Below the pieces are notes generated by a model. It was not told where the DNA came from. It searched no databases and saw nothing but the letters and a program-made list of their open reading frames with translations. From positions 28,848 to 92,847 of the IMG/VR virus record IMGVR_UViG_3300021962_000055: a DNA stretch of 64,000 nucleotides. One strand, written 5' to 3'. Below, piece after piece: positions 1-64,000 of this stretch (the first letter of the stretch is position 1; the number at the start of each line of letters is the position of its first letter). Position numbers and translations under genes: made by a program. This stretch comes from a virus.

Positions 1-794
1 TTTTCTTCGCGGGCCTCTCGTGCTTGCGGAGTAGATGTAATAGCCGAAACACCTAGGTCTTTACCGGAATCTTTAGTAGTTAGAGCTTGCGGCTGAACAA
101 ATGGGCGCTGGGGTTTTCCGGAGCGTGTTTCTCCAGACCAAAACCGCTGTTCTGCAACTAGTTCTCCCACGGTCTTTGCACGTGGAATGGCTGTACTCCT
201 ACGTGAAGATGTGGGGGCAGCAGGTTGTGCTGATCGTGCTGGACTTGGGGTCCTTGCAGCAGCACCACCCTCTTCTAGGCCTTTAGTGGTGGGGCCAAAA
301 GAGCGACGGGTTCCACGTGGTTGAGGTCCAAGCACATCAGAAACTGCTCTGCTTACTAACCCAGTACCAGCTAAATCTTGGTTCTCGATGTCTTCGTAGT
401 CTTCGATGTCACCGAGGTCTTCTGAGGTACCAGCAGCAATGTCCCTCTTAGCACCGGTAACATCAACCGGGGCTAATCCTACATCTTGTAGAAAAGCAGG
501 GTCGATTCCAGAACTAGCGAGGATCTCGTTGTAGGTATCGGGGTCATACTCGGGGTGGTCTGGGTTCCTGAGGTTTTCAAGTGATGAAAAGGAATCAGTA
601 GAAGGGTCGTAATAATCACTTTCAAAAGTGGCCATACGAGCAACCTGCTGTTGCCTAAAATTGCGAACTGCTTCGTCGGCAGCTTTCTGTGCTGCCTTAG
701 TTGGCTGACCTTTGGTCGTGTACCCCTTACTGCGTACAGTATCCTTTACTGCCTTAGCAAGCGGATCAACAGTCTTTCTTTTCCTTGCGGCCAT
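1..794 (-). CDS. hypothetical protein, truncated at window edge (MAARKRKTVDPLAKAVKDTVRSKG...)
   Basis: ATG at 794 preceded by GAGGTG; N-terminus translated by hand; absent from ORF track, consistent with running off the left edge. Confidence 0.65.
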   Translation of the reverse strand, partial: MAARKRKTVDPLAKAVKDTVRSKGYTTKGQPTKAAQKAADEAVRNFRQQQVARMATFESDYYDPSTDSFSSLENLRNPDHPEYDPDTYNEILASSGIDPAFLQDVGLAPVDVTGAKRDIAAGTSEDLGDIEDYEDIENQDLAGTGLVSRAVSDVLGPQPRGTRRSFGPTTKGLEEGGAAARTPSPARSAQPAAPTSSRRSTAIPRAKTVGELVAEQRFWSGETRSGKPQRPFVQPQALTTKDSGKDLGVSAITSTPQAREAREE

Positions 795-862
795 TCATAC
801 ACCTCGCAAAACGGGAATCGCTAACTAAGATATTACCACTTATTGGTGAGCCCTAATGAGGG

Positions 863-1147
863 TCAGCGCACCACGGGCTTGAATGTAATAGCCGATATGA
901 CTTCGCCGTTTTCGCCCTTGATATCATCAAATCCGATTACAAACGACAGGTCGATACCTCGTGGGGCAACAAATCCTCGGGCAATGGCGCAAGCCTTTGC
1001 TGCCTGGTTGACAGCGCTTGCTCCGATGGCCCTCATCCTTGGTGCTTGCCCAGCAACAACAGCTCGGGCAACGATAGAGGCGACACTCTGTGGGTTACTG
1101 GTTCCTGAAACCTTTACGACTTCATCAACCTGTTGATCTTGTGACAT
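863..1147 (-). CDS. spoVS: SpoVS-family (Alba-like fold) nucleic-acid-binding protein
   Basis: KVSGTSNPQSVA...RAIGASAVNQAAKACAIARGFVAPRGIDL closely matches the SpoVS signature; GGAG RBS. Confidence 0.92.
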   Translation of the reverse strand: MSQDQQVDEVVKVSGTSNPQSVASIVARAVVAGQAPRMRAIGASAVNQAAKACAIARGFVAPRGIDLSFVIGFDDIKGENGEVISAITFKPVVR

Positions 1148-1188
1148 AATGTACTCCGTATAAAACAGTCGGTAATGACTGCTCTATA

Positions 1189-1551
1189 CTATGAGTACCC
1201 AGCTTCCTTCAATAGTTCAACCAAGTCACTCAAGCGCATCACAGCGTATGAATCACCCAGGGCTTTTTCGCCTTTACCAGGGCGTTTAACAACGAGTGCA
1301 GGTACTGCCCCACCTAGGTTCTCGGCCTGCTCGACGGTGTCGTTCAACCACTGGCTAAGTGAGAATGACTTCTGATTCTTACATTGTACAGTTACCTGTC
1401 GGTTAACCTGGTTACGGATACCGTTGATATCTCCTGTGTCTCCCCCGCCCTTTAGCACAGTACGGTGGGCAACTGGAAATCCGTTATCGTTCAAATACTG
1501 CCTTACCAGGGTTTCAAACGAGGTTCCTTTTTGCTTAGCCCTATTCGCCAT
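1189..1551 (-). CDS. Holliday-junction resolvase-like PD-(D/E)xK nuclease
   Basis: K-KGTSFE...GD...VQCKN pattern typical of phage Hjc-like resolvases. Confidence 0.75.
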   Translation of the reverse strand: MANRAKQKGTSFETLVRQYLNDNGFPVAHRTVLKGGGDTGDINGIRNQVNRQVTVQCKNQKSFSLSQWLNDTVEQAENLGGAVPALVVKRPGKGEKALGDSYAVMRLSDLVELLKEAGYS

Positions 1552-1816
1552 GGTACGGCCCTATGTACTCTTCCCAGATTATCTGGGGCTTTTCACCACA
1601 CTGTTTACAACTTCCACCTTGCCCGGGTGGTACAGCTGGCCAATCCCTACAGCATCTGGCGATAATAAGACCCTCAAAAGCAAAGTAGCTGTCGACAACA
1701 TTGCGCCAGTGGTCACGGTCGGCTCGCATTTTGTCAAACATCTCCTTTAGGGCGTGGAAATCATCTTCGCATTCTTGAAGTTCGGCTCGTAGACGGGCAA
1801 CTAGATCGTCAGTCAC
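1541..1816 (-). CDS. hypothetical protein (coiled coil plus Cys motif)
   Basis: ORF track 1541..1849; GTG at 1816 preferred because it abuts the upstream gene. Confidence 0.5.
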   Translation of the reverse strand: MTDDLVARLRAELQECEDDFHALKEMFDKMRADRDHWRNVVDSYFAFEGLIIARCCRDWPAVPPGQGGSCKQCGEKPQIIWEEYIGPYHGE

Positions 1817-1976
1817 GATTAAGTTTCTCGGTGATCTTGCGGAGCTCACTCAAGATGTCCTGTAAGGTGTGGTTGATCTTATTGAGTGGTTCAGTGGTAT
1901 ACCGATAGGTATCTTGTTGTCGGCGGTACCGTTCGTTGGCTTCACGTGCTGCTTGGTGTCCATAGGGGTCTGACAT
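1809..1976 (-). CDS. small hypothetical protein (MSDPYGHQ...)
   Basis: ATG directly after the stop of the upstream gene, GGAG upstream; fills the operon gap. Confidence 0.5.
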   Translation of the reverse strand: MSDPYGHQAAREANERYRRQQDTYRYTTEPLNKINHTLQDILSELRKITEKLNRD

Positions 1977-1977
1977 G

Positions 1978-2478
1978 TCATGCTCCAAATCTAGATGTAC
2001 GTTGGTCTTTCCCATGCAAGCCGATCCTGCGGCTTAGCTCTCGTGAGAGTAGTTGGGCTCCTCGTTCGCAACCTTCGAACATGGCTTCCATCAACTTTCG
2101 GTACGCCCTGGCTACTTGGTACTTTTCTTGCTGGGCTACAACGTTAATATCTACGTCGCGTCTGGCTTTGGCGATGGTTACTCGGTCACCCTTGGCGTCT
2201 GCACCCCACTGAGATATGAGTACTCGAGCCTCGACAACCCTACAGTTGTTTGCCTCTTTGTCTTCGTCAATCTCAGCCTTCACAAGCTGGCCTTTAAGAT
2301 ATGACACCCAAGACATGAACTGTGTATACAAATCCATGAGGTCACTGTCGTCCATATCGTCAAGGTGTACTGGCAGCGACGGTGGTTCATCACCTGGTCG
2401 CTGTGGAAGTGAAAACTTTGAGTTAAAACGTTCCATGGCCGGGTGCTCCGGCGGTTCTTGAGAAAGCACTCTCACCAT
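1978..2478 (-). CDS. hypothetical protein, possible UvsY-like recombination mediator
   Basis: All-helical, about 166 aa, in RecA/Cas4 cluster; start coupled to upstream stop. Confidence 0.4.
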   Translation of the reverse strand: MVRVLSQEPPEHPAMERFNSKFSLPQRPGDEPPSLPVHLDDMDDSDLMDLYTQFMSWVSYLKGQLVKAEIDEDKEANNCRVVEARVLISQWGADAKGDRVTIAKARRDVDINVVAQQEKYQVARAYRKLMEAMFEGCERGAQLLSRELSRRIGLHGKDQRTSRFGA

Positions 2479-3344
2479 CACCAACACACCTTTTTGTAGG
2501 GGCAGTACGTGCAGCCTTTGCATTTTGAGTCTGTAGCCCACGACGGACGTTCTGGAGTTGTCCCCTCGTCTAGGTGGGCAATAACAGTCTTGCAGTTTTC
2601 CAACAATGGGGCAACTATCTCTTCGTTGTACTTTACAGAAAACTCTTTAATTTCTTGCGTCGGTTTCCACTCATAGATGAACACCATCTCATGCACCCCA
2701 GTGCAGTACATATACAAGTTACCTTGTCGAAGATGTGAGGCAAATGGTGTCTTAATGTTTTTCCATACCTCGTCAATGGTGATTTGACCCTTTTGGTAAT
2801 CGGCGTGCAGTGAGGGCTTCTCAAAACGAACAGTGCCGATACCAACACTCTTAATTTCGATTAACGCTTGCCCCTGGGAGTCTTTAATTTCCCCATCAGC
2901 ATGCCCGAGGATCCTGTGGTCATCATCTTGAATAGGTACCTCGTTATACCTAATGCTAGTAGAACCGCAGCTGACACAGGAATTAGGAGAAGTTGCAACC
3001 CATACCACAGAGCACCTTTTACAGGACCACGCACCATGTAACACCCCAGCTTTCCAAAGCCATGTTTGCCATTTTTCGTGAATGGCATGGCCTTCCTCAA
3101 ATACATTTAACCTACTAAATGACATGGAGTCCGGGGCAGCGGAGACACCAGTAATCTTGTACACCGCCGCACGTGCACACCAATCCTTTTTAGACAGCTC
3201 ACTGGGGTGCAGGTGGTCTGTATCCCTGTGCATGTTGCGCTCTTTTTGCATACGCATAATCTGCGCTTCAGCCAATGGGATAACCCGCCCCTTGGACTTC
3301 ATTGCCTTTTTGTAATCCTTGAGATACCAAGGTTGTTCAGTCAT
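2478..3344 (-). CDS. Cas4-like PD-(D/E)xK exonuclease
   Basis: PSEL..WC, GHADG, EIKS, QxxxY and C-terminal CxxCPYxxxC Fe-S motif. Confidence 0.85.
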   Translation of the reverse strand: MTEQPWYLKDYKKAMKSKGRVIPLAEAQIMRMQKERNMHRDTDHLHPSELSKKDWCARAAVYKITGVSAAPDSMSFSRLNVFEEGHAIHEKWQTWLWKAGVLHGAWSCKRCSVVWVATSPNSCVSCGSTSIRYNEVPIQDDDHRILGHADGEIKDSQGQALIEIKSVGIGTVRFEKPSLHADYQKGQITIDEVWKNIKTPFASHLRQGNLYMYCTGVHEMVFIYEWKPTQEIKEFSVKYNEEIVAPLLENCKTVIAHLDEGTTPERPSWATDSKCKGCTYCPYKKVCW

Positions 3345-3682
3345 TGCGCACCGATGATTTCTTGAAAGTCATCTTCATTAAGGATTACGTAATGCCTACC
3401 ACCAAGGTCAAACTGTAGTACCGCCAATCGATCCTCCAAGATCGCCCTTTGAGTCAGCTCTTGCAGTTCCTTAGCCTTGATTGAATAAGACTTTTCATTA
3501 TTCGTTAGTTTGTTTTCGATTAGTAGTTCATGGGTACGCACATCGTTTTTACGCAACCACCCTGATCCAGAACCAGCATTTCTGCTTCCCCTGTAGATCT
3601 TTGCAGATCTGTTCTCTTGCCTCTTTGAGGCTTTCATTATTTCTCGTTGCTGGTCTGCCCGGTCTTCGCGCCCAAAAATCAC
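3341..3682 (-). CDS. small PD-(D/E)xK endonuclease (resolvase-like)
   Basis: E...GSG...DV...IENK motif. Confidence 0.6.
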   Translation of the reverse strand: MIFGREDRADQQREIMKASKRQENRSAKIYRGSRNAGSGSGWLRKNDVRTHELLIENKLTNNEKSYSIKAKELQELTQRAILEDRLAVLQFDLGGRHYVILNEDDFQEIIGAQ

Positions 3683-4695
3683 AGGAACTTCTCCAGTGCC
3701 TTTTGCTTTAGGTCTGCTTGAAGGTCGAGGTCTTCACGAACACCGGTAAGTAATGCATCTTTACCTTGCCACTTTTGACCACCGTAGTTGTAGTACGCAC
3801 CAGTACGAGTAATGATCTCCGTAGCGATACAGATATTTACAACGTCTTTGATAACGTCAAACTCACCTAAACCAAACCCGTGGGAAGCGGCAAAGTAGAA
3901 ATCTACTTGCGCTACCTGTTGTGGACGGTATGTCTTGTTCTTCATGGTGCGGCCACGGATCGTCTGACCTACAGGCTCGTCCTTATCCTTGATCCACTCA
4001 TCACGCTTAACTTCGACGCGGACAAAGTAATGAAAGTTCTTTGCCTTACCACCTGGTGTGGTGCGGGGGTCACCATACATAACACCAATCTTTTCCCGCC
4101 ACTGGTTGATGATCAAGCCAGTGCACCCACGGTCTTCATTGATGAGTGAACGTTTTTGTGCTTTGCTGCTCTTGCGAAAGAACTTGCCGGTAAGACGGGC
4201 ACCGAGTCCTACGGAGAACTCTTCCATCATCTTTTCTGCCTCGTCACCTGGGACAAGGGCAGGAAGGGAATCGAGGACAATGCAGTCAACGGCGCGGTTT
4301 TCCATAGCCCTGATGATCAGGTCGTAGGCATGCTCCATGACGTTGGTCTCTACCACCCAAAGACGTTCAAGGTCAACACCAATAGCCTTGGCGTAGTCAG
4401 GAACAAATTCTTCAGCAGCTACCCACATGGCAATCCAATCTGGGTCTGCGGCCTGGTTGGCAGCGATGGTCTTGTAGGCCAGGGCTGTCTTGCCGGATGA
4501 TTCGTCACCAATGATCTCTGACCACTGGTTCATTGGCCAGCCGCCTCCGAGCATCAAGTCAAAGGCAAGAATACCCGTGGTAATCCTAGGAACTTCTTCC
4601 TTTACTCGGTTACCTTGTACGATGATGTCCTCACCGTACTTCTTGTTGATGGACGCAACAATGGACTCAAGAGTCTCACGCTGTTCGCTTTTCAA
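3679..4695 (-). CDS. recA: RecA-family recombinase
   Basis: Walker A GDESSGKT, IVLDS, INQWREKIGVMYGDPRTTPGGKA; TTG start with AGGAG RBS. Confidence 0.96.
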   Translation of the reverse strand: MKSEQRETLESIVASINKKYGEDIIVQGNRVKEEVPRITTGILAFDLMLGGGWPMNQWSEIIGDESSGKTALAYKTIAANQAADPDWIAMWVAAEEFVPDYAKAIGVDLERLWVVETNVMEHAYDLIIRAMENRAVDCIVLDSLPALVPGDEAEKMMEEFSVGLGARLTGKFFRKSSKAQKRSLINEDRGCTGLIINQWREKIGVMYGDPRTTPGGKAKNFHYFVRVEVKRDEWIKDKDEPVGQTIRGRTMKNKTYRPQQVAQVDFYFAASHGFGLGEFDVIKDVVNICIATEIITRTGAYYNYGGQKWQGKDALLTGVREDLDLQADLKQKALEKFL

Positions 4696-4708
4696 ATTGT
4701 GCTCCTAG

Positions 4709-5116
4709 TTAGACAGCCCAAGAGGACTGTGACCCTTGATCATACAGGCCATTCCACCCACATTCAAAGCATCGTGGGGCTGGTGAGTTTCCACCCACCA
4801 TGGTGTTTCCACCTTTTGCAGTTCGCACGAATACATGTTGACTACCGCATTCCGGGCAGGTCATGTCGCCCTGTTTACGTGCAGCCTCTCCACCCTTCCA
4901 TAGTCGAATTGCTTCTCCCATGGTTACGTTTTCTGTGGGAGCCCTTGACTCATCAAGAACTCGTTGGTTACCAGCATTAGGTTGATGTTGAACCGGAGCC
5001 ATGGGAACCTGGATACCAACCCTCATTGGAGGGCTAGTCGGAGGAACTGACGTTTCAGTTCTAGGTAGCTGGCGTGGTGTGGAACCGGAAAGTCGCTGGG
5101 ACCACCAATCACTCAT
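4709..5116 (-). CDS. hypothetical zinc-ribbon protein
   Basis: CPECGS...CFECG; start taken at MSDWW. Confidence 0.6.
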   Translation of the reverse strand: MSDWWSQRLSGSTPRQLPRTETSVPPTSPPMRVGIQVPMAPVQHQPNAGNQRVLDESRAPTENVTMGEAIRLWKGGEAARKQGDMTCPECGSQHVFVRTAKGGNTMVGGNSPAPRCFECGWNGLYDQGSQSSWAV

Positions 5117-5555
5117 CCTCTTCATCCTCTTCGTCGTCGTACTCTTCGTCTTCGTCTATGATAAACGTAAACAAATTAAATATTGCCGAGGCATTTACAC
5201 TACCAACCCTATCGGCAACAGGGATGTCAGGCAATATCAATTGCTCGTTATCTACTAGATGAGAAACTAGGGCCATGCCAAAAGACTGGATAACGTTCTT
5301 TGTGTTCTCTAGATCCTCTTCATCAAGGTCATTATGTACCTTGACAACTTCCATCATCCATTCGGTGCAGTTTTGTACGGTCTCAAAAATGCCTAGGCCT
5401 GTAAGAACAACCCACTTGCTGATGATGTCCATGATCTCGCTCTCCTGTACTTCAGGAGAAGGTACGGAGAACCCAGCCGAAGACGCAATCTTCTGCCCTT
5501 CCATTATGGACAGGGACAGATAAAAGTTTCTTTTATCGACTGGTGTTGTAGACAT
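5109..5555 (-). CDS. hypothetical protein with acidic tail
   Basis: Translationally coupled to polA stop. Confidence 0.65.
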   Translation of the reverse strand: MSTTPVDKRNFYLSLSIMEGQKIASSAGFSVPSPEVQESEIMDIISKWVVLTGLGIFETVQNCTEWMMEVVKVHNDLDEEDLENTKNVIQSFGMALVSHLVDNEQLILPDIPVADRVGSVNASAIFNLFTFIIDEDEEYDDEEDEEDE

Positions 5556-7645
5556 TACTTACCTTTGGCCTCTGCCCAGCTAATAGCGGAATGGCAGGAA
5601 ACCTTTAACGGAATCCCGTTGTATGTTACACCATCTCCCATGGAGGACACCAGCTTGTCAAGTAACCTGTCTACCTGGTCTTTTTCTACCAGTACAACTA
5701 GTTCGTCGTGTACCTGTACCAGGATGTTGGCACCCAGTGGGGTTAGGTCGTTATACACATCGACCATGGCTTTCTTACAAATGTCGGCAGCTGACCCCTG
5801 TACAACTGCGTTAACTGCCTGACGCTCTGCCCTAGACCTTAAGGCGGGGTCAGTGGAAACTAGATCGGATAAATGCCTGCGGCGACCAGACAGGGTCTGC
5901 ACATAACCTTTGGCTCTTCCCTCTGCGATCACAGACTGCTTCCACTTGGTGATCCCAGAAAACTGCTTGTAGTACTGGTCGATGACATGGCGGGCATGCT
6001 CTTCATCGATACCCGTGGTGCGAGCAAGTTTCTGCGGGCCACCGCCATAGGCCGTCAAGAAGTTGACGCCCTTACCAAGCTGTCGCTCTTCTGAGGTTAC
6101 TTCGGTAACCGGCTTACCAAGCACCAAGGCGGCAGCACCAGAGTGAATGTCGGCCCCGGTCAGGAAGAACTCACTCATCTTCTTGTCTCCGGAGAACATG
6201 CACATTACACGGAGCTCGATCTGGTCATAGTCGGCAACCAGCAGCTCATACCCCTCAGGGGCAACGAATAGTCCTCTAACGCTACTGTCACGTGGGATGT
6301 TCTGCAGGTTGGGGTTGCTGGACGACAGGCGTCCAGTGGCGGTCCTGTGCAGGTGAAACGACGGGTGCAGTCGGCTCTTGTTTAGCTTCGGGAGCAACCC
6401 ATCAACGTAAGTTGATACCAGCTTTTTGGTTTCAGCCCACTCCAAAAGCATCGGGACAACTGGGTGCTTAGTCTCTAACTTACGAAGTGACTCTTCGTCA
6501 ACTGATGCGCTTCCACCAGGGGTGGTCTTTACTGGCTTAAGCCCTAGCCCACCCTCTCGCTTTTTGTTGAACAGCAGCTGTTGTTTATGCTTTGAACTGT
6601 CAGGGTTAAACCCCGGTGGGGCGTAATCCATCATTGAAACCAGAAGGTCGTTCAGGCGGTTCTCCAACTGTTTGCCAAGCACAGTCATAGACCTCTGGTT
6701 GACTGGAATACCGTTGTCCTCCATCTCCATGAGGACGCGAAGAACTTCCATGTCTTGACGAAGGGAATTGAGAAGTTCTGGTACAGCTACAACCTTGCGG
6801 TACAGCGACTTGTACAAATTCCACGTCCAGCGAACATCTAGGTGTACGTACCGTAGAGCCTGTGTAAATGACGTCTCACTAATGATCGCTCCAAGCTTTC
6901 CATCTTTGTGGTACGCCTTAAACGATTCAAAGTTGTGGGAGATCAGGTGATCCAAACTGTACTCAGACAGGTTCTCATTAAGCACATGCTGTAGGAGCAT
7001 GGTATCCAAGTAGGGGCCCGGGGGAAGGCTTCCACCAAAGTATTTACGTATGGACCTGGCATCAAACTTTACGTTGTGCCCAATCTTAACAATGTCGCTA
7101 AAGAAGATTGGGCGTAGGGCCTCAAATACTTGTGATGGTGAGAGCTGTGGGGGAGGGGGGCTGTATACGGCTGGTTTGTAATACTTGGCTTTGGCCATGG
7201 ACTCTTTACCACTCTTCAAAAGAGCTCGGTATCCAGGTGGTGGAACAGTTGACCCATCACCACGTTCGGCAGGTTCAATGATGCTTCCATTGGGGTGACC
7301 CATTGGAATAGCCCACGAATGTCCCTGGGTAGCAATCCCAATCCAAAATACGTTGTTACGGATTGGGTCTAGCGCCAGGGTGTTGCGCCACCTGTTGGTA
7401 ATGATGTCTTTGGCGCGATTGACAATATCAACATTTGTGGTCTTAAGAGTGGCGACGTGGTCTTTCCACTCCTTTTCAATCCACTGCTGTACATCTGGGT
7501 GCCGCTCTACAGCACCCATCGTCTCAACGTCGAAAGCGAATGCTCCGACGTTTTTTACAACCTCAACGATCTCGTTAAGTTGCTCCACTGTAGTAACGAA
7601 GTGGGGGGCATTGCTGCCCCCCACTCGTGCCGTGATATTGCTCAC
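5555..7645 (-). CDS. polA: family A DNA polymerase with 3'-5' exonuclease domain, no 5'-3' exonuclease
   Basis: DVET, GHNVKFD, TGRLSSSNPNLQNIP, DYDQIELR, KGVNFLTAYG, VHDE. Confidence 0.97.
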   Translation of the reverse strand: MSNITARVGGSNAPHFVTTVEQLNEIVEVVKNVGAFAFDVETMGAVERHPDVQQWIEKEWKDHVATLKTTNVDIVNRAKDIITNRWRNTLALDPIRNNVFWIGIATQGHSWAIPMGHPNGSIIEPAERGDGSTVPPPGYRALLKSGKESMAKAKYYKPAVYSPPPPQLSPSQVFEALRPIFFSDIVKIGHNVKFDARSIRKYFGGSLPPGPYLDTMLLQHVLNENLSEYSLDHLISHNFESFKAYHKDGKLGAIISETSFTQALRYVHLDVRWTWNLYKSLYRKVVAVPELLNSLRQDMEVLRVLMEMEDNGIPVNQRSMTVLGKQLENRLNDLLVSMMDYAPPGFNPDSSKHKQQLLFNKKREGGLGLKPVKTTPGGSASVDEESLRKLETKHPVVPMLLEWAETKKLVSTYVDGLLPKLNKSRLHPSFHLHRTATGRLSSSNPNLQNIPRDSSVRGLFVAPEGYELLVADYDQIELRVMCMFSGDKKMSEFFLTGADIHSGAAALVLGKPVTEVTSEERQLGKGVNFLTAYGGGPQKLARTTGIDEEHARHVIDQYYKQFSGITKWKQSVIAEGRAKGYVQTLSGRRRHLSDLVSTDPALRSRAERQAVNAVVQGSAADICKKAMVDVYNDLTPLGANILVQVHDELVVLVEKDQVDRLLDKLVSSMGDGVTYNGIPLKVSCHSAISWAEAKGK

Positions 7646-7650
7646 GGATA

Positions 7651-8364
7651 TCAGTCGTCCAGATCTTCAAGAGCAATCTGCTGGAGATCCTTACGTGCAG
7701 GGATCTGAATGATATCCGGAGTGTAAGCCTTGCCCTTGAAAGAGCGGATGTCTTCCGGGGTAAGCGGCTCAATGTTCCACTCTTCCAGGTCCCGCTCCTT
7801 GACCAACTGATGGTTGGTGGCAGAAGTGGCACCCTTGCCGGAACGGCTTACCGCCCAGAAGTGCTTGGAGAGAGGTCCCTGACGGGGGTCATTGTGGAAG
7901 TTCTTGAGCTGGTCGATGACCCGAGGTCCCACTTCGTAGGACTTGATGGACGGCTCGCTGTCGGAACTCAGAAGCACCACATTGAATGCAAACCGAGTTG
8001 ACGGACGGCTACCGGCATCACAAAGCGGACAACCCTTTGGGTCGATGTCCGCAATGCAGGTAAACGACTTCTGACCCGAACGCTCAACCCAGTGTTGGCG
8101 GTATGAAGCGTAGGGCTCATCCTCCAAGAACTTGATGATGATGGGGTCTTCCATCACGCGAAGACGCTGAGCGTACGGTGAGTCGGCATTCTTGACCGAG
8201 TCCGCTGCACCCCAACCACGACGGATTACCCGTGATGCGGCAGCGGGGCGCTCTTCAGCTTCTTCCTTTTCTTCGTCTTCCACGACGAGCTTCAATCCCT
8301 TGGTTGAACGCACCGGGGCGTCTTCCATGATTTCCTGCTCGTCATCATCTTCATATCTGCTCAT
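7651..8364 (-). CDS. single-stranded DNA-binding protein, gp32-like
   Basis: IKFL...HW...C...CPLC Zn motif, OB-fold pattern, adjacent to polA. Confidence 0.7.
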   Translation of the reverse strand: MSRYEDDDEQEIMEDAPVRSTKGLKLVVEDEEKEEAEERPAAASRVIRRGWGAADSVKNADSPYAQRLRVMEDPIIIKFLEDEPYASYRQHWVERSGQKSFTCIADIDPKGCPLCDAGSRPSTRFAFNVVLLSSDSEPSIKSYEVGPRVIDQLKNFHNDPRQGPLSKHFWAVSRSGKGATSATNHQLVKERDLEEWNIEPLTPEDIRSFKGKAYTPDIIQIPARKDLQQIALEDLDD

Positions 8365-59342: not shown

Positions 59343-60014
59343 TTACACGGTACCGGTGAACACCCACCTAGTACCGGTACGTAATCCCTTAGAAGTGATG
59401 TTCTTGAACCCAATATCCTGCATCATGCCCTGAACAGCTGCCGGGTTGAATCCCCAGAAGTTTGTATCGTCACTGTTCAACTCATCCTTAATATAGTACC
59501 GAGCTGCTGGGTATGGTATGTCTAACATGTCCACATGGGTCTCGATGACTACTAAACCGTTGGACATGGCCTTGGCCTTCTCTAGGTACCCAATCGGATC
59601 TTTAGCGTGGTAGATAACCCCAAGCATGAGTACGATGTCAAACTTCCCATGCTTCTTAGGACTCAACTCCTCAACAGACGCTACTAACTTCTCTACGTTG
59701 GAGTTCCTGTGCTTCTTGGCAAAGTCGAATCCAGAGTCACCGACTTGAGACCCGTTGTGGATAACTCTTCCCTTCCATACGAACTTGTCGGAAGCGACCA
59801 CTCGGGCCGCATTACGTTGTTCACAAGCAAATGAGTAATACCCATCCCAGGCCCCAATGTCCAGTACAGACAGTCCAGATAGATCTTCAGGTAGTCCTAG
59901 GTTCTCAAAGGTGTTAGGGGCCTCTACGCTCAGCCCATTGGTGGTGTGCTCCCCAATCTGAATGGGGTGCCACCATACGATGGAGTTCATCTCGTCTAGT
60001 GTACTTTGATCCAT
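59343..60014 (-). CDS. class I SAM-dependent methyltransferase (CmoB/DUF1698-like)
   Basis: VLDIGAWDGYYSF, FDIVLMLGVIYH..DP; AGGAGG RBS. Confidence 0.85.
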   Translation of the reverse strand: MDQSTLDEMNSIVWWHPIQIGEHTTNGLSVEAPNTFENLGLPEDLSGLSVLDIGAWDGYYSFACEQRNAARVVASDKFVWKGRVIHNGSQVGDSGFDFAKKHRNSNVEKLVASVEELSPKKHGKFDIVLMLGVIYHAKDPIGYLEKAKAMSNGLVVIETHVDMLDIPYPAARYYIKDELNSDDTNFWGFNPAAVQGMMQDIGFKNITSKGLRTGTRWVFTGTV

Positions 60015-60045
60015 AGATCCTCCTTGTGAATAGGTCTACATTACC

Positions 60046-60399
60046 TTATCCACAGGTGCCCAGTTATCCACAGGTAACCCCCCCCATTTCGAATAGGGCT
60101 ATTACGCAGTGGTGTGTTTATCGGCGGGTGGGTACTGCCCCCGCTCCGGCGACCTGCTAGCGACTAGTGATGGGGGTCACCCCCCACCCCCCACTTAGTT
60201 GTGGGGTGGTGGCATCGGGGTGCGCTAGTCACTAGCGTACCTGATCCTCCCCTGCTAGGCAAGGCGCCTACCGGCCTGGCAGAAGCATCATGGGGACATC
60301 TGTGGTTATCCACAGGGTCAGCCCCCTACCAGTGGTTATCCACAGGGTTATCCACAGGCCTAGCAATGGGTCTATGAGTTATCCACAGGTTTATCCACA
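60046..60399 (+). promoter_or_regulatory. cluster of seven perfect DnaA boxes (TTATCCACA)
   Basis: At 60046, 60064, 60306, 60336, 60348, 60379 and 60391; an inverted copy lies at 61185-61193. Confidence 0.85.
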
Positions 60400-60490
60400 G
60401 AGGTGGGGGCTGGCTAGTCACTAGCATTACGGTGCGCGGAGTTGCTATCTCTCTGTCCAGTGTCCATTCACTACCAGAGAGGGGAACATC

Positions 60491-61132
60491 ATGGCTACCA
60501 TGACCCGCAGCAACATCCAACCGATGACCGACATCGTCGAGGCCTTCAAGGCTGACTACGACAAGGTCGTCGCTGACAACGGCAACGGTGCCGTCGAACT
60601 GTACGCCCGAGGCGTGCTGATTGGCGATGCCGGTGACCTGGTGCGCGACCTCGCGTTCGACCTGGCGAAGCGCTTCGGCGCCACCTGGGGCGAGAGCGAC
60701 GTCGCTCGTGCGTTCGGTCTCAAGACCGCCGCAGCCAAGGTCATGACCGAGACCGTGCGCTACCTGGCCACGCTCACCGATGACGGCACTCCGGCCGTCG
60801 ACGTGCGCAAGGCCGTGTACGCGGTCCACAACCAGACCGGTACCGGTGTGGTCGCGCTGTCCAACTTCCTCAAGGTCAAGGCCTCGAAGTTGAAGGACGG
60901 CAAGACCCTCCCGTACAAGGCGGTGGTCAGCGCATCGGACCACCTCGTCAAGGAGGCCAAGAAGGCGGGCGAAGAGCCCAAGCCCGAGGCCACCCCTGCC
61001 GAGCAGGTCGATGCCATCATCAAGCGCATCGAGCGCGCTCTCAACGACCTCGCCCCCTTCACGGAGGCCGGTTACGAGTTCGCACTCGAGCAGTCGGTCA
61101 AGCTCGCCGCCATCAAGGCGCGCTTGGCCTGA
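60491..61132 (+). CDS. hypothetical early protein
   Basis: GAGGGG RBS; very strong G/C third-position bias; possible HTH (ESDVARAFGL). Confidence 0.85.
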   Translation: MATMTRSNIQPMTDIVEAFKADYDKVVADNGNGAVELYARGVLIGDAGDLVRDLAFDLAKRFGATWGESDVARAFGLKTAAAKVMTETVRYLATLTDDGTPAVDVRKAVYAVHNQTGTGVVALSNFLKVKASKLKDGKTLPYKAVVSASDHLVKEAKKAGEEPKPEATPAEQVDAIIKRIERALNDLAPFTEAGYEFALEQSVKLAAIKARLA

Positions 61133-62038
61133 GAGATGGTGACTCCGCGCATCTAGTGTGACGTGACCGGCCAGCCTCCTCCCCTGTGGATAAGCCGCGC
61201 TAGTGGCTAGCGAGTAGGCCTGATAAGGGCCTGTTTGTAATCCATGGGAATCACATGGGAGGGGTGCTGACCTCTGTGTAACAACGCGCGAACCCCCCAT
61301 CCTGCCAGGCAATACGTAAGCCGAACGGCCCAACCGCAATGTACTCCGGTACGTTGGTCAAGGAGGTATGGCCAAACCAACTTATGTTGGGGGCGCAGGA
61401 TGTGGACGGCCTTCAAGCCTGGGTTGTAAGCCGCGCCCTGTAACCGCAGAGCAAGGGAGTTGGCCTCAGTGCCGGGATATCCCTGTCCCCTACATCAACG
61501 TGTAAGAGTTAGGCCCGCCCAAGTGGTGGGGCGACCACCCCTAAGCAAGGTGGATACTACATCGCCCCCATGAGAGCCACGGGCAGAAGCGACCCCCACA
61601 AGGGGCGCGCGCACGACCCAGCGAGTACACCATACTCGCATGCCGTCCGGTTGTATCCGGGTAAGTCTGGTACCAGGCGGGAGACACTCTGACCACGTTC
61701 ATAAGGGGCCGAGGATGCCGAGGGATTACCCCTCGGTGTCCTCTGCCCCTTCCGACCATTGGGAGCAAGGCCGGTGGGTTGGTGCTAGTCACTAGCCCAC
61801 CGGCCAAGATCTTAGTCAATATTGTAATTGACTAGGACAAGCGGCCATCGCCACACCGGGCAGGCCGCTTGTTTAACCGGGGGCGAGGGTACGCTACTAC
61901 TAGCAACCCTTGCCCCCACCTCTTGGGGAGTCGACCGACCCCCATAAGGCAGCAGGCATACCCCCTATCATGCCAGCGCCATCGGTCCCCTTCTCCCCGA
62001 TGGTTGGAGTGGCTCATGAACCCTTGAAAGGGGAACCC
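61133..62038 (+). ncRNA. candidate large structured non-coding RNA
   Basis: No credible ORF; many hairpins with G-U pairs on the + strand; boundaries uncertain. Confidence 0.5.
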
Positions 62039-62293
62039 ATGAGCAAGTTCCACGTGGAGCACTACGATGTCCTCGGTCTGTTGGGCATCGACCACCTCAT
62101 CTTGAGGTGGGAGTACACAAAGGAAAGGGTCTGCCCGGTCACCGGTGCGCCGGTGGCGTTCGAGCAGGTCCTCGCGGGGCAGTACCACCTGCCCCGCATC
62201 GGTGGCGACTCGGCCAACGGGTACGAAGTGTACCCGACCGAGTCGTACCTCCGCCACCTGGCCGACAAGGTGTCGGCCTTCCTCGCTGACTGA
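62039..62293 (+). CDS. hypothetical early protein (MSKFHVEHY...)
   Basis: AAAGGGG RBS; GC3-rich codons begin at this ATG. Confidence 0.8.
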   Translation: MSKFHVEHYDVLGLLGIDHLILRWEYTKERVCPVTGAPVAFEQVLAGQYHLPRIGGDSANGYEVYPTESYLRHLADKVSAFLAD

Positions 62294-62439
62294 GTCAGCA
62301 CGGTTAGGAGAACCAACCGAGCCACTCCAACCATCAACCGTTCTCGGACAGGCGCGCGTCGCGACTGTGCTGCCGTCCAAACCAATCTGCTCCTAGTGGC
62401 TAGCGGGCCCGTCTTCCTACGACCCTTGAAAGGGGAAAT

Positions 62440-62883
62440 ATGAAGACACACAAGAAGAAGCCCAAGACAGACAACACCATCCGCCGTGAGGCGGAGGTCG
62501 CCCTCTCCAAGTTGGATGGGGCAACCCGCGAGCTGACGGGATCCTCCCAGGAGGAAGCCGACGAGCTGATGGCTCTCCTGCGGGAGTGCCAGAAGCACAT
62601 CAGCGAGATGGAGTTCGTGGCCCGTAAGGGCTACGCCATCATGAAGCGGGCAGAGAAGGCGCTCAAGTTGCCGTCTCTGGAGTTGCCCAGCAAGGCAATG
62701 CCCTTGGCCGACTTCCAGAAGGAAGTCAAGCGCCAGGAGAAGGCATTCAAGCAGAAGGCCACGGAGTCGATGAAGAAGATCGTCGACGCCGACTACGCCC
62801 TTCTCAAGGGCCTCGATGCCGTGGCGGACGCCATCAGCAGCCGTATCACCGAGGCCGCATACCGAGGGTTCGCCCTCAACTGA
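62440..62883 (+). CDS. hypothetical coiled-coil early protein
   Basis: AAAGGGG RBS; GC3-rich. Confidence 0.8.
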   Translation: MKTHKKKPKTDNTIRREAEVALSKLDGATRELTGSSQEEADELMALLRECQKHISEMEFVARKGYAIMKRAEKALKLPSLELPSKAMPLADFQKEVKRQEKAFKQKATESMKKIVDADYALLKGLDAVADAISSRITEAAYRGFALN

Positions 62884-62920
62884 CCCAGACGGGTCCGCTA
62901 GTCACTAGTAGCACACTCCT

Positions 62921-63023
62921 GGTGGGAGCCCTCTTATCCCCCATAAGAGGAGAAGGCGCGGCGCTTACAACCCCCATAAGAGGGGAGGGTGCCGGTGTGG
63001 TTCGACTCCACCTCCCACCACCA
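62921..63023 (+). ncRNA. tRNA-like RNA with non-canonical D and anticodon arms
   Basis: GGTGGGA/TCCCACC acceptor stem plus A-CCA; GTGG-TTCGACT-CCAC T arm. Confidence 0.7.
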
Positions 63024-63035
63024 TGCTAGCCACTA

Positions 63036-63108
63036 GCCCACGTAGCTCAGGGGATAGAGCAACGGTTTCCTAAACCGTGTGTCGCAGGTTCGAATCCTGC
63101 CGTGGGCA
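63036..63108 (+). tRNA. tRNA-Arg(CCU)
   Basis: GCCCACG/CGTGGGC, GCTC/GAGC, ACGGT-TT CCT AA-ACCGT, GCAGG-TTCGAAT-CCTGC; no encoded CCA. Confidence 0.95.
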
Positions 63109-63254
63109 CTCTGGTCAAAAGGCACGAGATGGGGCATCACTCCCCATCGGGACTAACGGGGGCTTGCCACCCGTGAACCAGACGAGTTTATCCGTTCTCG
63201 ACAAAAACGGACAATTCTCCCAGTCCCAGCTAGTCACTAGAGGAGGTGACAACA

Positions 63255-63488
63255 ATGGCAAAAATTACCATCACAACGTCCACCGAGACGCTTCAGTTGC
63301 TGGAGGACATCCTCCAGTCATACGAAAATGCGTTGGACGACCACCTGTACCGCATCTTTCCCGAGTCTTCTACTCGGCAGGCTCAGGGCGACATCGCCAC
63401 CATGCGTGCCGAGATGAACCGAATGATCGGTCAGGCGGAACGCCAGATCGAGAAGACCCGCCCCGACTTGTCGGGAGTCCACGACTAG
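63255..63488 (+). CDS. small hypothetical early protein (MAKITITTS...)
   Basis: AGGAGGTGA RBS fused to CTAG motif. Confidence 0.75.
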   Translation: MAKITITTSTETLQLLEDILQSYENALDDHLYRIFPESSTRQAQGDIATMRAEMNRMIGQAERQIEKTRPDLSGVHD

Positions 63489-63503
63489 TCACTAGGAGGT
63501 GAC

Positions 63504-63743
63504 ATGAACAGCATCCAATTCTCTCTCCCCAATGGGTTCACATTCTCTGTGGCCCAGTGGGGAAAGGTTAAGGAATGCGCCGTTCTCCGGAGCGATGATT
63601 TCGTTCCTCTGGGCGTGTGGTACGCACCAAGCCTTGAAGACGACAGCGTTCTCATTCTCAGTGGGAGCGCAGAAAGCTTGGCAGCGGCCATGGAAAGAGC
63701 AATCGATTGGGCGAAAGACAACGCGCCCAACGCTAGTCACTAG
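63504..63743 (+). CDS. small hypothetical early protein
   Basis: AGGAGGTGAC-ATG. Confidence 0.75.
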   Translation: MNSIQFSLPNGFTFSVAQWGKVKECAVLRSDDFVPLGVWYAPSLEDDSVLILSGSAESLAAAMERAIDWAKDNAPNASH

Positions 63744-63751
63744 GAGGTGAC

Positions 63752-63907
63752 ATGGCGCACATGATGGGCGACAAGCGCGCCCGCAACGAGTGTCCCTGGG
63801 GTTGCTGTTCCGACAGCAAGGCTCAGGGGAAAAGAGGTGCCTACAGGTGGCACCGCATGTTCCGCTCCCGTGAAAAGCGGGAGTGGAGGAAGGAGCAATG
63901 GTCATGA
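63752..63907 (+). CDS. 51-aa basic Cys-containing protein (MAHMMGDKRARNECPWGCC...)
   Basis: AGGAGGTGAC-ATG; not in ORF track. Confidence 0.7.
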   Translation: MAHMMGDKRARNECPWGCCSDSKAQGKRGAYRWHRMFRSREKREWRKEQWS

Positions 63908-64000
63908 GAACCAAGCGCAAGGCCCGAGCCATCGGGTCGGATCGGTGGGGCACCATCTACCGATACGGCCTTTACGAGGACATGGACATCCTCCAGCAGG
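63904..64000 (+). CDS. hypothetical protein, truncated at window edge (MRTKRKARAIG...)
   Basis: AAGGAG RBS, ATGA overlap, open to the edge. Confidence 0.6.
   Translation, partial: MRTKRKARAIGSDRWGTIYRYGLYEDMDILQQ

Follow-up and report, generated by a model that had tools for sequence, protein, structure and literature searches.

A gap of 906 nt separates the stop codon of the first early gene, ORF1 (61130-61132), from the next start codon (ATG at 62039) in an otherwise gene-dense phage genome, and its length raises the question of what it contains. A preliminary description had proposed that the gap, 61133-62038, holds an uncharacterized structured RNA of ~900 nt. Coordinates refer to the window, i.e., the whole 64,000-nt stretch of DNA analyzed, which is the last 64 kb of a source record of 92,847 bp (100% complete by CheckV). 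Genes for terminase, portal, tail sheath, baseplate, DNA polymerase, and helicase lie on the minus strand of the record; hence, the source is a myovirus-type phage of ~93 kb, from freshwater. Its nearest cultured kin are Streptomyces phages (47% identity in a terminase comparison), and the terminase has 372 matches among uncultured relatives in IMG/VR. From ~60000 to the end of the contig, and also in the initial ~4 kb of the record, GC content rises from ~50% to ~61%, and the genes are small and on the plus strand. This GC-rich block is an early-type region. It begins at a strand switch carrying seven TTATCCACA boxes (DnaA boxes; 60046-60399). Clusters of four to eight perfect copies of this box are kept at the early-region strand switch of related phage records (L100, 2861-2947; L101, 8571-8699; L103, 6976-7130; L106, 5807-6052; L107, 1089-1424), even where the adjoining genes differ between relatives. 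Each end of the record (window 63837-64000; genome 1-160) has a copy of a small cassette, and the copies are nearly but not fully identical; the break in the contig probably falls at a tandem duplicate, with the GC-rich early block continuous across the record ends. The gap is on the same strand as the early genes, ~1 kb upstream of tRNA-Arg (63036-63109) and a tRNA-like element (62920-63020), with two ORFs between.

The gap has no credible ORF, in agreement with the preliminary description. The largest ORF within it has 92 aa, stop codons are present in all six frames, and the GC3 of its ORFs is 0.52 to 0.66, compared to 0.75 to 0.88 in the real neighboring genes. None of these ORFs matched Pfam or PHROG, and at an E value of ≤1 there was nothing beyond noise. 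Greedy ORF tiling, used for ranking gaps, was uninformative, with spurious antisense ORFs in the GC-rich block. Among the collections searched, the sole relative that covers the region is L002, a metagenome contig of 15.6 kb whose ORF1 is about 96 to 97% identical, and all structure comparisons were made on this one sequence pair, the window and L002. The two sequences differ by three 1-nt indels in the conserved block 61441-61815. Given the low GC3, the absence of family matches, and these indels, we conclude that the gap is noncoding.

The claim that the gap belongs to no known RNA family also stood: there was no match at the gathering score or at an E value of ≤10. A search of window positions 60900-63400 and of L002 with 4,227 Rfam models (E value, ≤10) returned only hairpin-shaped chance matches of ≤21 bits. 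In the same sequences, the GOLLD covariance model was unmatched at the gathering score or at an E value of ≤10, as was the ROOL model at an E value of ≤10. We conclude that the gap RNA belongs to neither GOLLD nor ROOL. When the region was compared with the 92.8-kb genome by self-BLAST, only junction motifs of 13 to 17 nt were recovered, and the hairpins are single copy. A multicopy palindromic mobile element (MITE or REP like) was rejected because the hairpin units are single copy in this genome. A retron, a diversity-generating retroelement (DGR) template, an omega or bridge RNA, and a CRISPR-like array were rejected since genes for a reverse transcriptase, TnpB/IscB, or a recombinase were not found nearby and the region is not repeated elsewhere in the genome. 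No intrinsic terminator (GC-rich stem plus T run) was found on the plus strand from 59800 to 64000, where the hairpin at 61837-61872 is followed by just TTTAA, and we found no sigma-70-like promoter or intrinsic terminator that would delimit a separate gene.

The region is predicted to fold far more stably than shuffled sequence. For the whole region, the plus strand has a folding energy of -442.9 kcal/mol, versus -357.7 ± 10.8 kcal/mol for shuffles (z score, -7.86); the z score of the minus strand is -4.46. Among 150-nt windows, folding is strongest at 61700-61900, with z scores of -14 to -6 (-14 at 61700, and -14, -6.2, -9.0, and -6.0 across 61700-61850). This is the location of the five near back-to-back stems noted earlier (61703-61751, 61769-61805, 61811-61836, 61837-61872, and 61879-61917), which are all in both the minimum free energy (MFE) and centroid folds. 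The preliminary description had also reported that stem mismatches are mostly G·U on the plus strand. This is true locally, in the 5′ block, the hairpin array, and the stem that brackets ORF1, but not for the whole-region MFE fold, in which the strands are alike (30 of 299 pairs on the plus strand are G·U, versus 31 of 308 on the minus strand). The stem bracketing ORF1 favors the plus strand best. It is followed by the 5′ block (-63.8 versus -40.2 kcal/mol, ~23 kcal/mol in favor of plus) and the hairpin array at 61700-61920 (-143.2 versus -126.9 kcal/mol, with six versus two G·U pairs). The core block fits the two strands equally (-174.9 kcal/mol for plus and -169.1 kcal/mol for minus, with six compensatory pairs each).

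Alignment with L002 divides the gap into conserved and variable modules. Conserved are 61133-61286, 61441-61810, and 61922-61996; missing from L002 are ~61279-61444 (A), 61811-61921 (B), and ~61997-62343 (C), and after 61996 L002 continues directly into its homologue of ORF3. The first conserved module is a long irregular hairpin on the plus strand at 61173-61268. It carries the motif CTAGTGGCTAGCG (61200-61212) and encloses a smaller hairpin (61210-61238); for the module, RNAalifold gave 52 pairs, 1 double compensatory change, 9 one-sided G·U-mediated changes, and 0 broken pairs. Next is variable expansion A (plus strand, 61272-61451), where a helix, CTCTGTG/CGCAGAG, closes a domain of ~160 nt. 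Within it, CATCCTGC (61298-61305) pairs with GCAGGATG (61395-61402) in the MFE fold, so that the long-range helix of the preliminary description is present here; the domain that contains it is missing from L002. In L002, ~61279-61444 is replaced by a 19-nt loop under the same closing helix; the expansion occupies exactly the terminal loop of a helix (CTCTGTG/CRCAGAG) that both genomes keep.

The conserved core is a predicted five-way junction of ~205 nt on the plus strand (61497-61699), identified by its fold plus compensatory changes. It is closed by helices 61497-61502/61694-61699 and 61506-61509/61686-61689 and contains one long hairpin (61517-61584) and four small ones (61593-61605, 61621-61639, 61647-61660, and 61665-61678). 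The stem at 61621-61639, noted previously, is kept in L002 with a GC-to-GU change. Two plus-strand hairpins that are identical in L002 follow. H1 (61703-61751; local z score, -14) has ~21 bp with one bulge, and H2 (61769-61805) has 16 bp with the palindromic motif GCTAGTCACTAGC at its apex (61784-61796). Variable module B (plus strand, 61811-61921) consists of hairpins H3 (61811-61836), H4 (61837-61872), and H5 (61879-61917), is flanked by the 4-nt repeat TCTT, and is absent from L002. The conserved 3′ block (plus strand, 61922-61996) contains a GGGG…CCCC hairpin, CATAAGG, and then a hairpin at 61948-61980; it is 91% identical to L002 and has helices in common with it. A single unit of ~900 nt did not survive this comparison, since L002 is without the domain of the long-range helix and without three of the five back-to-back hairpins. 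The gap is thus a patchwork of modules, not a single fixed large RNA; what stands of the original proposal is a noncoding region with no family match and with base pairing under selection.

Divergence between the window and L002 is 10.9% at the 4-fold sites of ORF1 and 7.9%, 16%, and 9% in the conserved noncoding blocks. This similarity suggests that the primary sequence of the blocks drifts at about the neutral rate and is not constrained beyond it. Pairing behaves differently. For 61441-61815 of the window and L002, RNAalifold gave 115 pairs with six double compensatory changes, one GC-to-GU change, and no broken pair. Two of the doubles are in the closing helices of the core (A-U to G-C at 61497/61699 and A-U to C-G at 61507/61688), two are in the long hairpin 61517-61584, and two are in the hairpin at 61593. 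In a permutation test, we used the MFE structure from the window alone, which avoids circularity, and placed the 30 substitutions again at random. Between the window and L002, four compensatory doubles were observed, versus 0.29 expected (P = 5e-5), and six pairs were broken, versus 11.6 expected (P = 0.007). Compensation relative to one relative therefore exceeds chance on a structure taken from the window only, as expected if base pairing is under selection, which the preliminary description had asserted. We conclude that pairing has been kept through compensation, including one compensating indel. Doubles in helices that join sites ~190 nt apart argue for a multibranch fold, beyond independent hairpins. 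The identity of blocks such as H1 and H2 could come from recent recombination, not constraint, because the neighboring gene also has 200-nt identical runs. Taken together, the sequences point to a gap RNA that is centered on the 205-nt five-way junction, lineage restricted, and structurally constrained.

To delimit the distribution of this element, we searched several collections. A BLASTN search of 50,697 phage records with the region gave nothing. No relative of the region was found in IMG/VR scans with ORF1, the ORF1 alignment, ORF3, or three RNA-derived patterns, or by comparing the ORF1 alignment with species-representative genomes, and a metagenome scan recovered L002 alone. The motif CTAGTCACTAGGAGG matched 23 viral stretches, of which only L115 overlaps the early region, ending short of the RNA. 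A covariance model of the core (model R1; 207 positions), run against 20 related virus records and all other loci examined, matched the window and L002 only. A 19-mer of the core that occurs in three Acidobacteriaceae metagenome-assembled genomes was rejected as a chance match; there, model R1 matches the 19-mer only, with 5 to 7 bits. The 20 related records (six complete; terminase, 85 to 96% identical) have in common with the source a methyltransferase gene, the DnaA-box region, and tRNA-Arg. By BLASTN and the core covariance model, ORF1 and the RNA are absent from all of them. Short-word BLAST of the region against the early regions of these relatives gave nothing, Rfam models found only tRNAs in their syntenic regions, and their early genes are tightly packed, with no such spacer. 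The absence of ORF1 and the RNA from 20 relatives suggests that the element is confined to a very narrow lineage. On this sequence evidence, the gap probably specifies a new, narrowly distributed structured RNA.

The ends of the gap belong to its neighbors. On the plus strand, a segment outside the gap (60388-60465), which includes the two final DnaA-box copies and one CTAGTCACTAG motif, forms the 5′ arm of a predicted stem around ORF1; the 3′ arm (61117-61196) consists of the end of ORF1 and the first ~65 nt of the gap, including an inverted DnaA-box copy at 61185-61194. RNAduplex gave -120.6 kcal/mol and 70 pairs (58 Watson-Crick and 12 G·U) for this duplex, compared to -92.2 kcal/mol and 3 G·U pairs on the minus strand. 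The bracket is kept in L002, where 2 nt are deleted from each arm (TC on the left and GA on the right) at positions that correspond. The “eighth DnaA box” at 61185 is accounted for as the complement of a left-arm box. Within the right arm, 61170-61196 has an alternative local partner at 61243-61270, with nine one-sided changes and no broken pair, and therefore alternative folds exist. Covariation of the bracket between the window and the related record G001 was not demonstrable, with the arms out of register. ORF1 itself (plus strand, 60491-61132; 213 aa; GC3, 0.88) has, besides its own cluster, four homologues (P0002 to P0005) at 47 to 79% identity. It has no Pfam or PHROG match, and a profile search of PDB sequences plus an ESM Atlas search gave no function, with only a weak DUF3102 lead.

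At the other end, the ORF2 cassette (plus strand, 61997-62343) contains an ORF of 84 aa (62039-62293; GC3, 0.80) and is delimited by a perfect 17-nt inverted repeat (61999-62015/62319-62335) with flanking TTCTC direct repeats. The whole cassette is cleanly absent from L002; hence, the last ~40 nt of the gap belong to it. With 61133-61196 assigned to the stem with 60388-60465 and ~61997-62038 to the neighboring ORF cassette, the interval originally proposed for the RNA needs new boundaries. The ORF2 cassette resembles a mobile or recombined unit of very small size, similar to that of the tiny mobile elements known from mycobacteriophages. ORF3 is also bracketed on the plus strand, by ~24 bp between 62390-62414 and 62887-62912 that include a pair of CTAG motifs. 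Compared to shuffles, complementarity of the flanks has z scores of -9.1 for ORF1, -4.8 for ORF2, and -5.0 for ORF3; no bracketing was found for the later early genes. Brackets also occur in relatives, around early genes unrelated to these: they enclose the initial early gene of G001 (59 pairs; z score, -4.3), a second G001 gene (z score, -5.9), and a gene of G002 (z score, -6.1). A stem of this kind pairs 2930-3003 with 3606-3676 in L100. Stem-bracketed early cassettes may be a family-wide organization.

Short motifs recur at these junctions. At junctions in genome positions 250-8061 and 89002-92590 (window 60155-63743), a 13-nt palindromic motif recurs about 28 times. Its plus-strand variants CTAGTCACTAG and CTAGTGGCTAG are complementary except for one G·U pair, so that upstream and downstream copies can pair across a cassette; in G001, this role falls to another palindrome, CTAACATTAG. 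A CTAG-N3-CTAG junction motif occurs twice inside the gap. CTAGTCACTAG adjoins GGAGGTGAC-ATG as one fused unit. A 16-nt module, ACCCTTGAAAGGGGAA, recurs unchanged at 62020-62035 and 62422-62437, 3 to 4 nt before the starts of ORF2 and ORF3; the first copy is the ribosome binding site (RBS) module of the ORF2 cassette.

We favor, with moderate confidence in what is a model, the reading that the gap is a structured noncoding segment of the plus-strand early transcript, with a conserved backbone and optional expansions, between duplex-closed ORFs. In this model, a composite structured RNA would be cotranscribed with the early genes on the plus strand. Its backbone would be the 5′ hairpin 61173-61268, the junction 61497-61699, hairpins 61703-61805, and the 3′ block 61922-61996, beside which this phage has the extra expansions 61279-61444 and 61811-61921. 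The flanking ORFs would be closed by inverted-repeat stems, 70 bp long for ORF1 and 17 bp long for ORF2. An RNase III-type enzyme, specific for double strands, would cut the long duplexes, separating the ORF mRNAs and releasing or insulating the structured spacer, which would persist as a stable RNA. Neither stability nor termination calls for a fold as elaborate as the five-way junction, suggesting that this domain may bind a specific partner, either a protein or another RNA. We infer the transcription, strand, processing, and trans function of the gap RNA. Counted against a structured RNA are the number of sequences (two, which is below R-scape-grade covariation), the equal fit of the core block to the two strands, the dispensability of large parts in L002, and the 20 related records without a counterpart.

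The same mosaic could have arisen in another way: independent hairpins, such as terminators, processing sites, or operator palindromes, may have remained where shuffled early-gene cassettes join, forming no higher-order RNA and lacking a function of their own. We consider this unlikely, if far from negligible. Two blocks and one ORF cassette differ between genomes that are ~96% identical in ORF1, the CTAG-N3-CTAG junction motif occurs twice within the gap, the primary sequence appears to change at a neutral rate, and the closest cultured kin are phages of Streptomyces; actinobacteria often use hairpin terminators without a U tract. However, independent hairpins have no need of compensation in helices ~190 nt apart that close a five-way junction. 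Nor do they account for a plus strand without a terminator-like site at 59800-64000, for hairpins that are single copy in the genome, or for relatives whose early genes are tight and have no such spacer. Selection could alternatively act on DNA: the gap may belong to a replication origin or to a regulatory region by the DnaA-box cluster, or may be a set of inverted repeats for recombination. The seven boxes and the inverted copy at 61185, the conservation of the cluster in relatives, and a core block that fits either strand equally are compatible with this reading, which we nonetheless judge improbable. As DNA, the two arms that bracket ORF1 show a complementarity of only ~82%, and their mismatches are nearly all G·T on the plus strand (12 versus 3), which suits RNA, not duplex DNA or a cruciform. 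Moreover, relatives retain the DnaA boxes yet do not have the gap region, and the inverted box is simply the complement of the left arm.

Two further explanations merit hardly any credence. One is a divergent member of GOLLD, ROOL, or another Rfam family, as a size of 640 to 900 nt, a phage origin, and tRNA-Arg plus a tRNA-like element ~1 kb downstream might suggest; the lack of any match to the Rfam models in the window or L002, and the two ORFs between the gap and the tRNA, make this very improbable. The other, equally implausible to us, is decayed protein-coding sequence, i.e., pseudogenes of early genes lost in a phage group with fast early-gene turnover. Against it are stops in six frames, a GC3 at the noncoding level, Pfam and PHROG similarity (E value, ≤1) that is noise only, and substitutions that follow base pairs rather than codon positions.

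The structured-segment model has partial precedents. RNase III hairpins process the early transcripts of T7, and long stems bracket 16S and 23S rRNA in rRNA operons. As in these systems, there are long imperfect double-stranded stems between or over polycistronic units. RNase III acts on stems of about two helical turns or more, a length reached by the ORF1 bracket (70 pairs) and H1 (~21 bp); also counted toward this length were H2 (16 bp) and the ORF3 bracket (~24 bp). T7 sites are local hairpins, whereas the stems predicted here enclose whole ORFs, and unlike in T7 or rRNA operons, a structured spacer of 600 to 800 nt lies between the units. On paper only, the flanking stems resemble T7 or rRNA-operon processing stems.

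GOLLD and ROOL RNAs are often found near tRNA islands (bioRxiv 10.1101/2024.12.08.627333), and GOLLD combines a conserved with a variable part (bioRxiv 10.1101/2024.12.08.627333; also PMC5737381). Like them, the gap RNA is phage encoded, hundreds of nucleotides long, and elaborate in its predicted fold; tRNA-Arg and the tRNA-like element are ~1 kb downstream of it, beyond two ORFs. Unlike them, it is known from two genomes only, is without a match to their models, and lies between early ORFs rather than clearly within a tRNA island, with no evidence of a pseudoknot or of self-assembly. In Cluster K mycobacteriophages, short phage-specific repeats (SAS/ESAS) are fused to the RBS of some genes, and some of them have 17-bp inverted repeats (PMC3203893). 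Here, similarly, CTAGTCACTAG is joined to GGAGGTGAC-ATG and ACCCTTGAAAGGGGAA precedes two ATGs. In contrast to SAS/ESAS, the motif is palindromic, has two near-complementary variants able to pair across a whole cassette, and has two copies within a noncoding stretch. The hairpin (“I-shaped”) terminators of actinobacteria lack a U tract. Similarly, no T run follows the GC-rich perfect hairpins of the gap, and this phage has Streptomyces-phage kin. However, five hairpins in a row plus a predicted multibranch domain with long-range covariation exceed what termination needs.

A bolder form of the structured-segment model, which we put forward tentatively and consider doubtful, is that the gap specifies a new class of large phage RNA of ~640 to 870 nt, excised at gene-bracketing duplexes, with a junction core that tolerates domain expansions, and acting in trans at host takeover. 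Such an RNA might be a decoy or scaffold, or might self-assemble as GOLLD and ROOL do, and would be the noncoding member of an array of stem-closed early cassettes. Large structured phage RNAs are few, and to our knowledge none has a known function. Within an abundant group of freshwater phages, a further, unrelated large RNA in the host-takeover region would broaden the class. Long G·U-rich stems over adjoining early ORFs, recurring around unrelated early genes of relatives, would offer a possible route of biogenesis. If the stems are processing sites, early operons would be organized as stem-closed cassettes that hold either a protein gene or an RNA. For now, on two sequences, we regard the gap RNA as a well-founded candidate, not a discovery.

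The tRNA-like element at 62920-63020, just upstream of tRNA-Arg, is a weak match to tRNA-Sec (23.6 bits; E value, 0.067; gathering score, 47) and was not called by ARAGORN. A 16-nt segment of expansion A (61421-61436) is 88% complementary to positions 62958-62973 of this element, 1.5 kb downstream.
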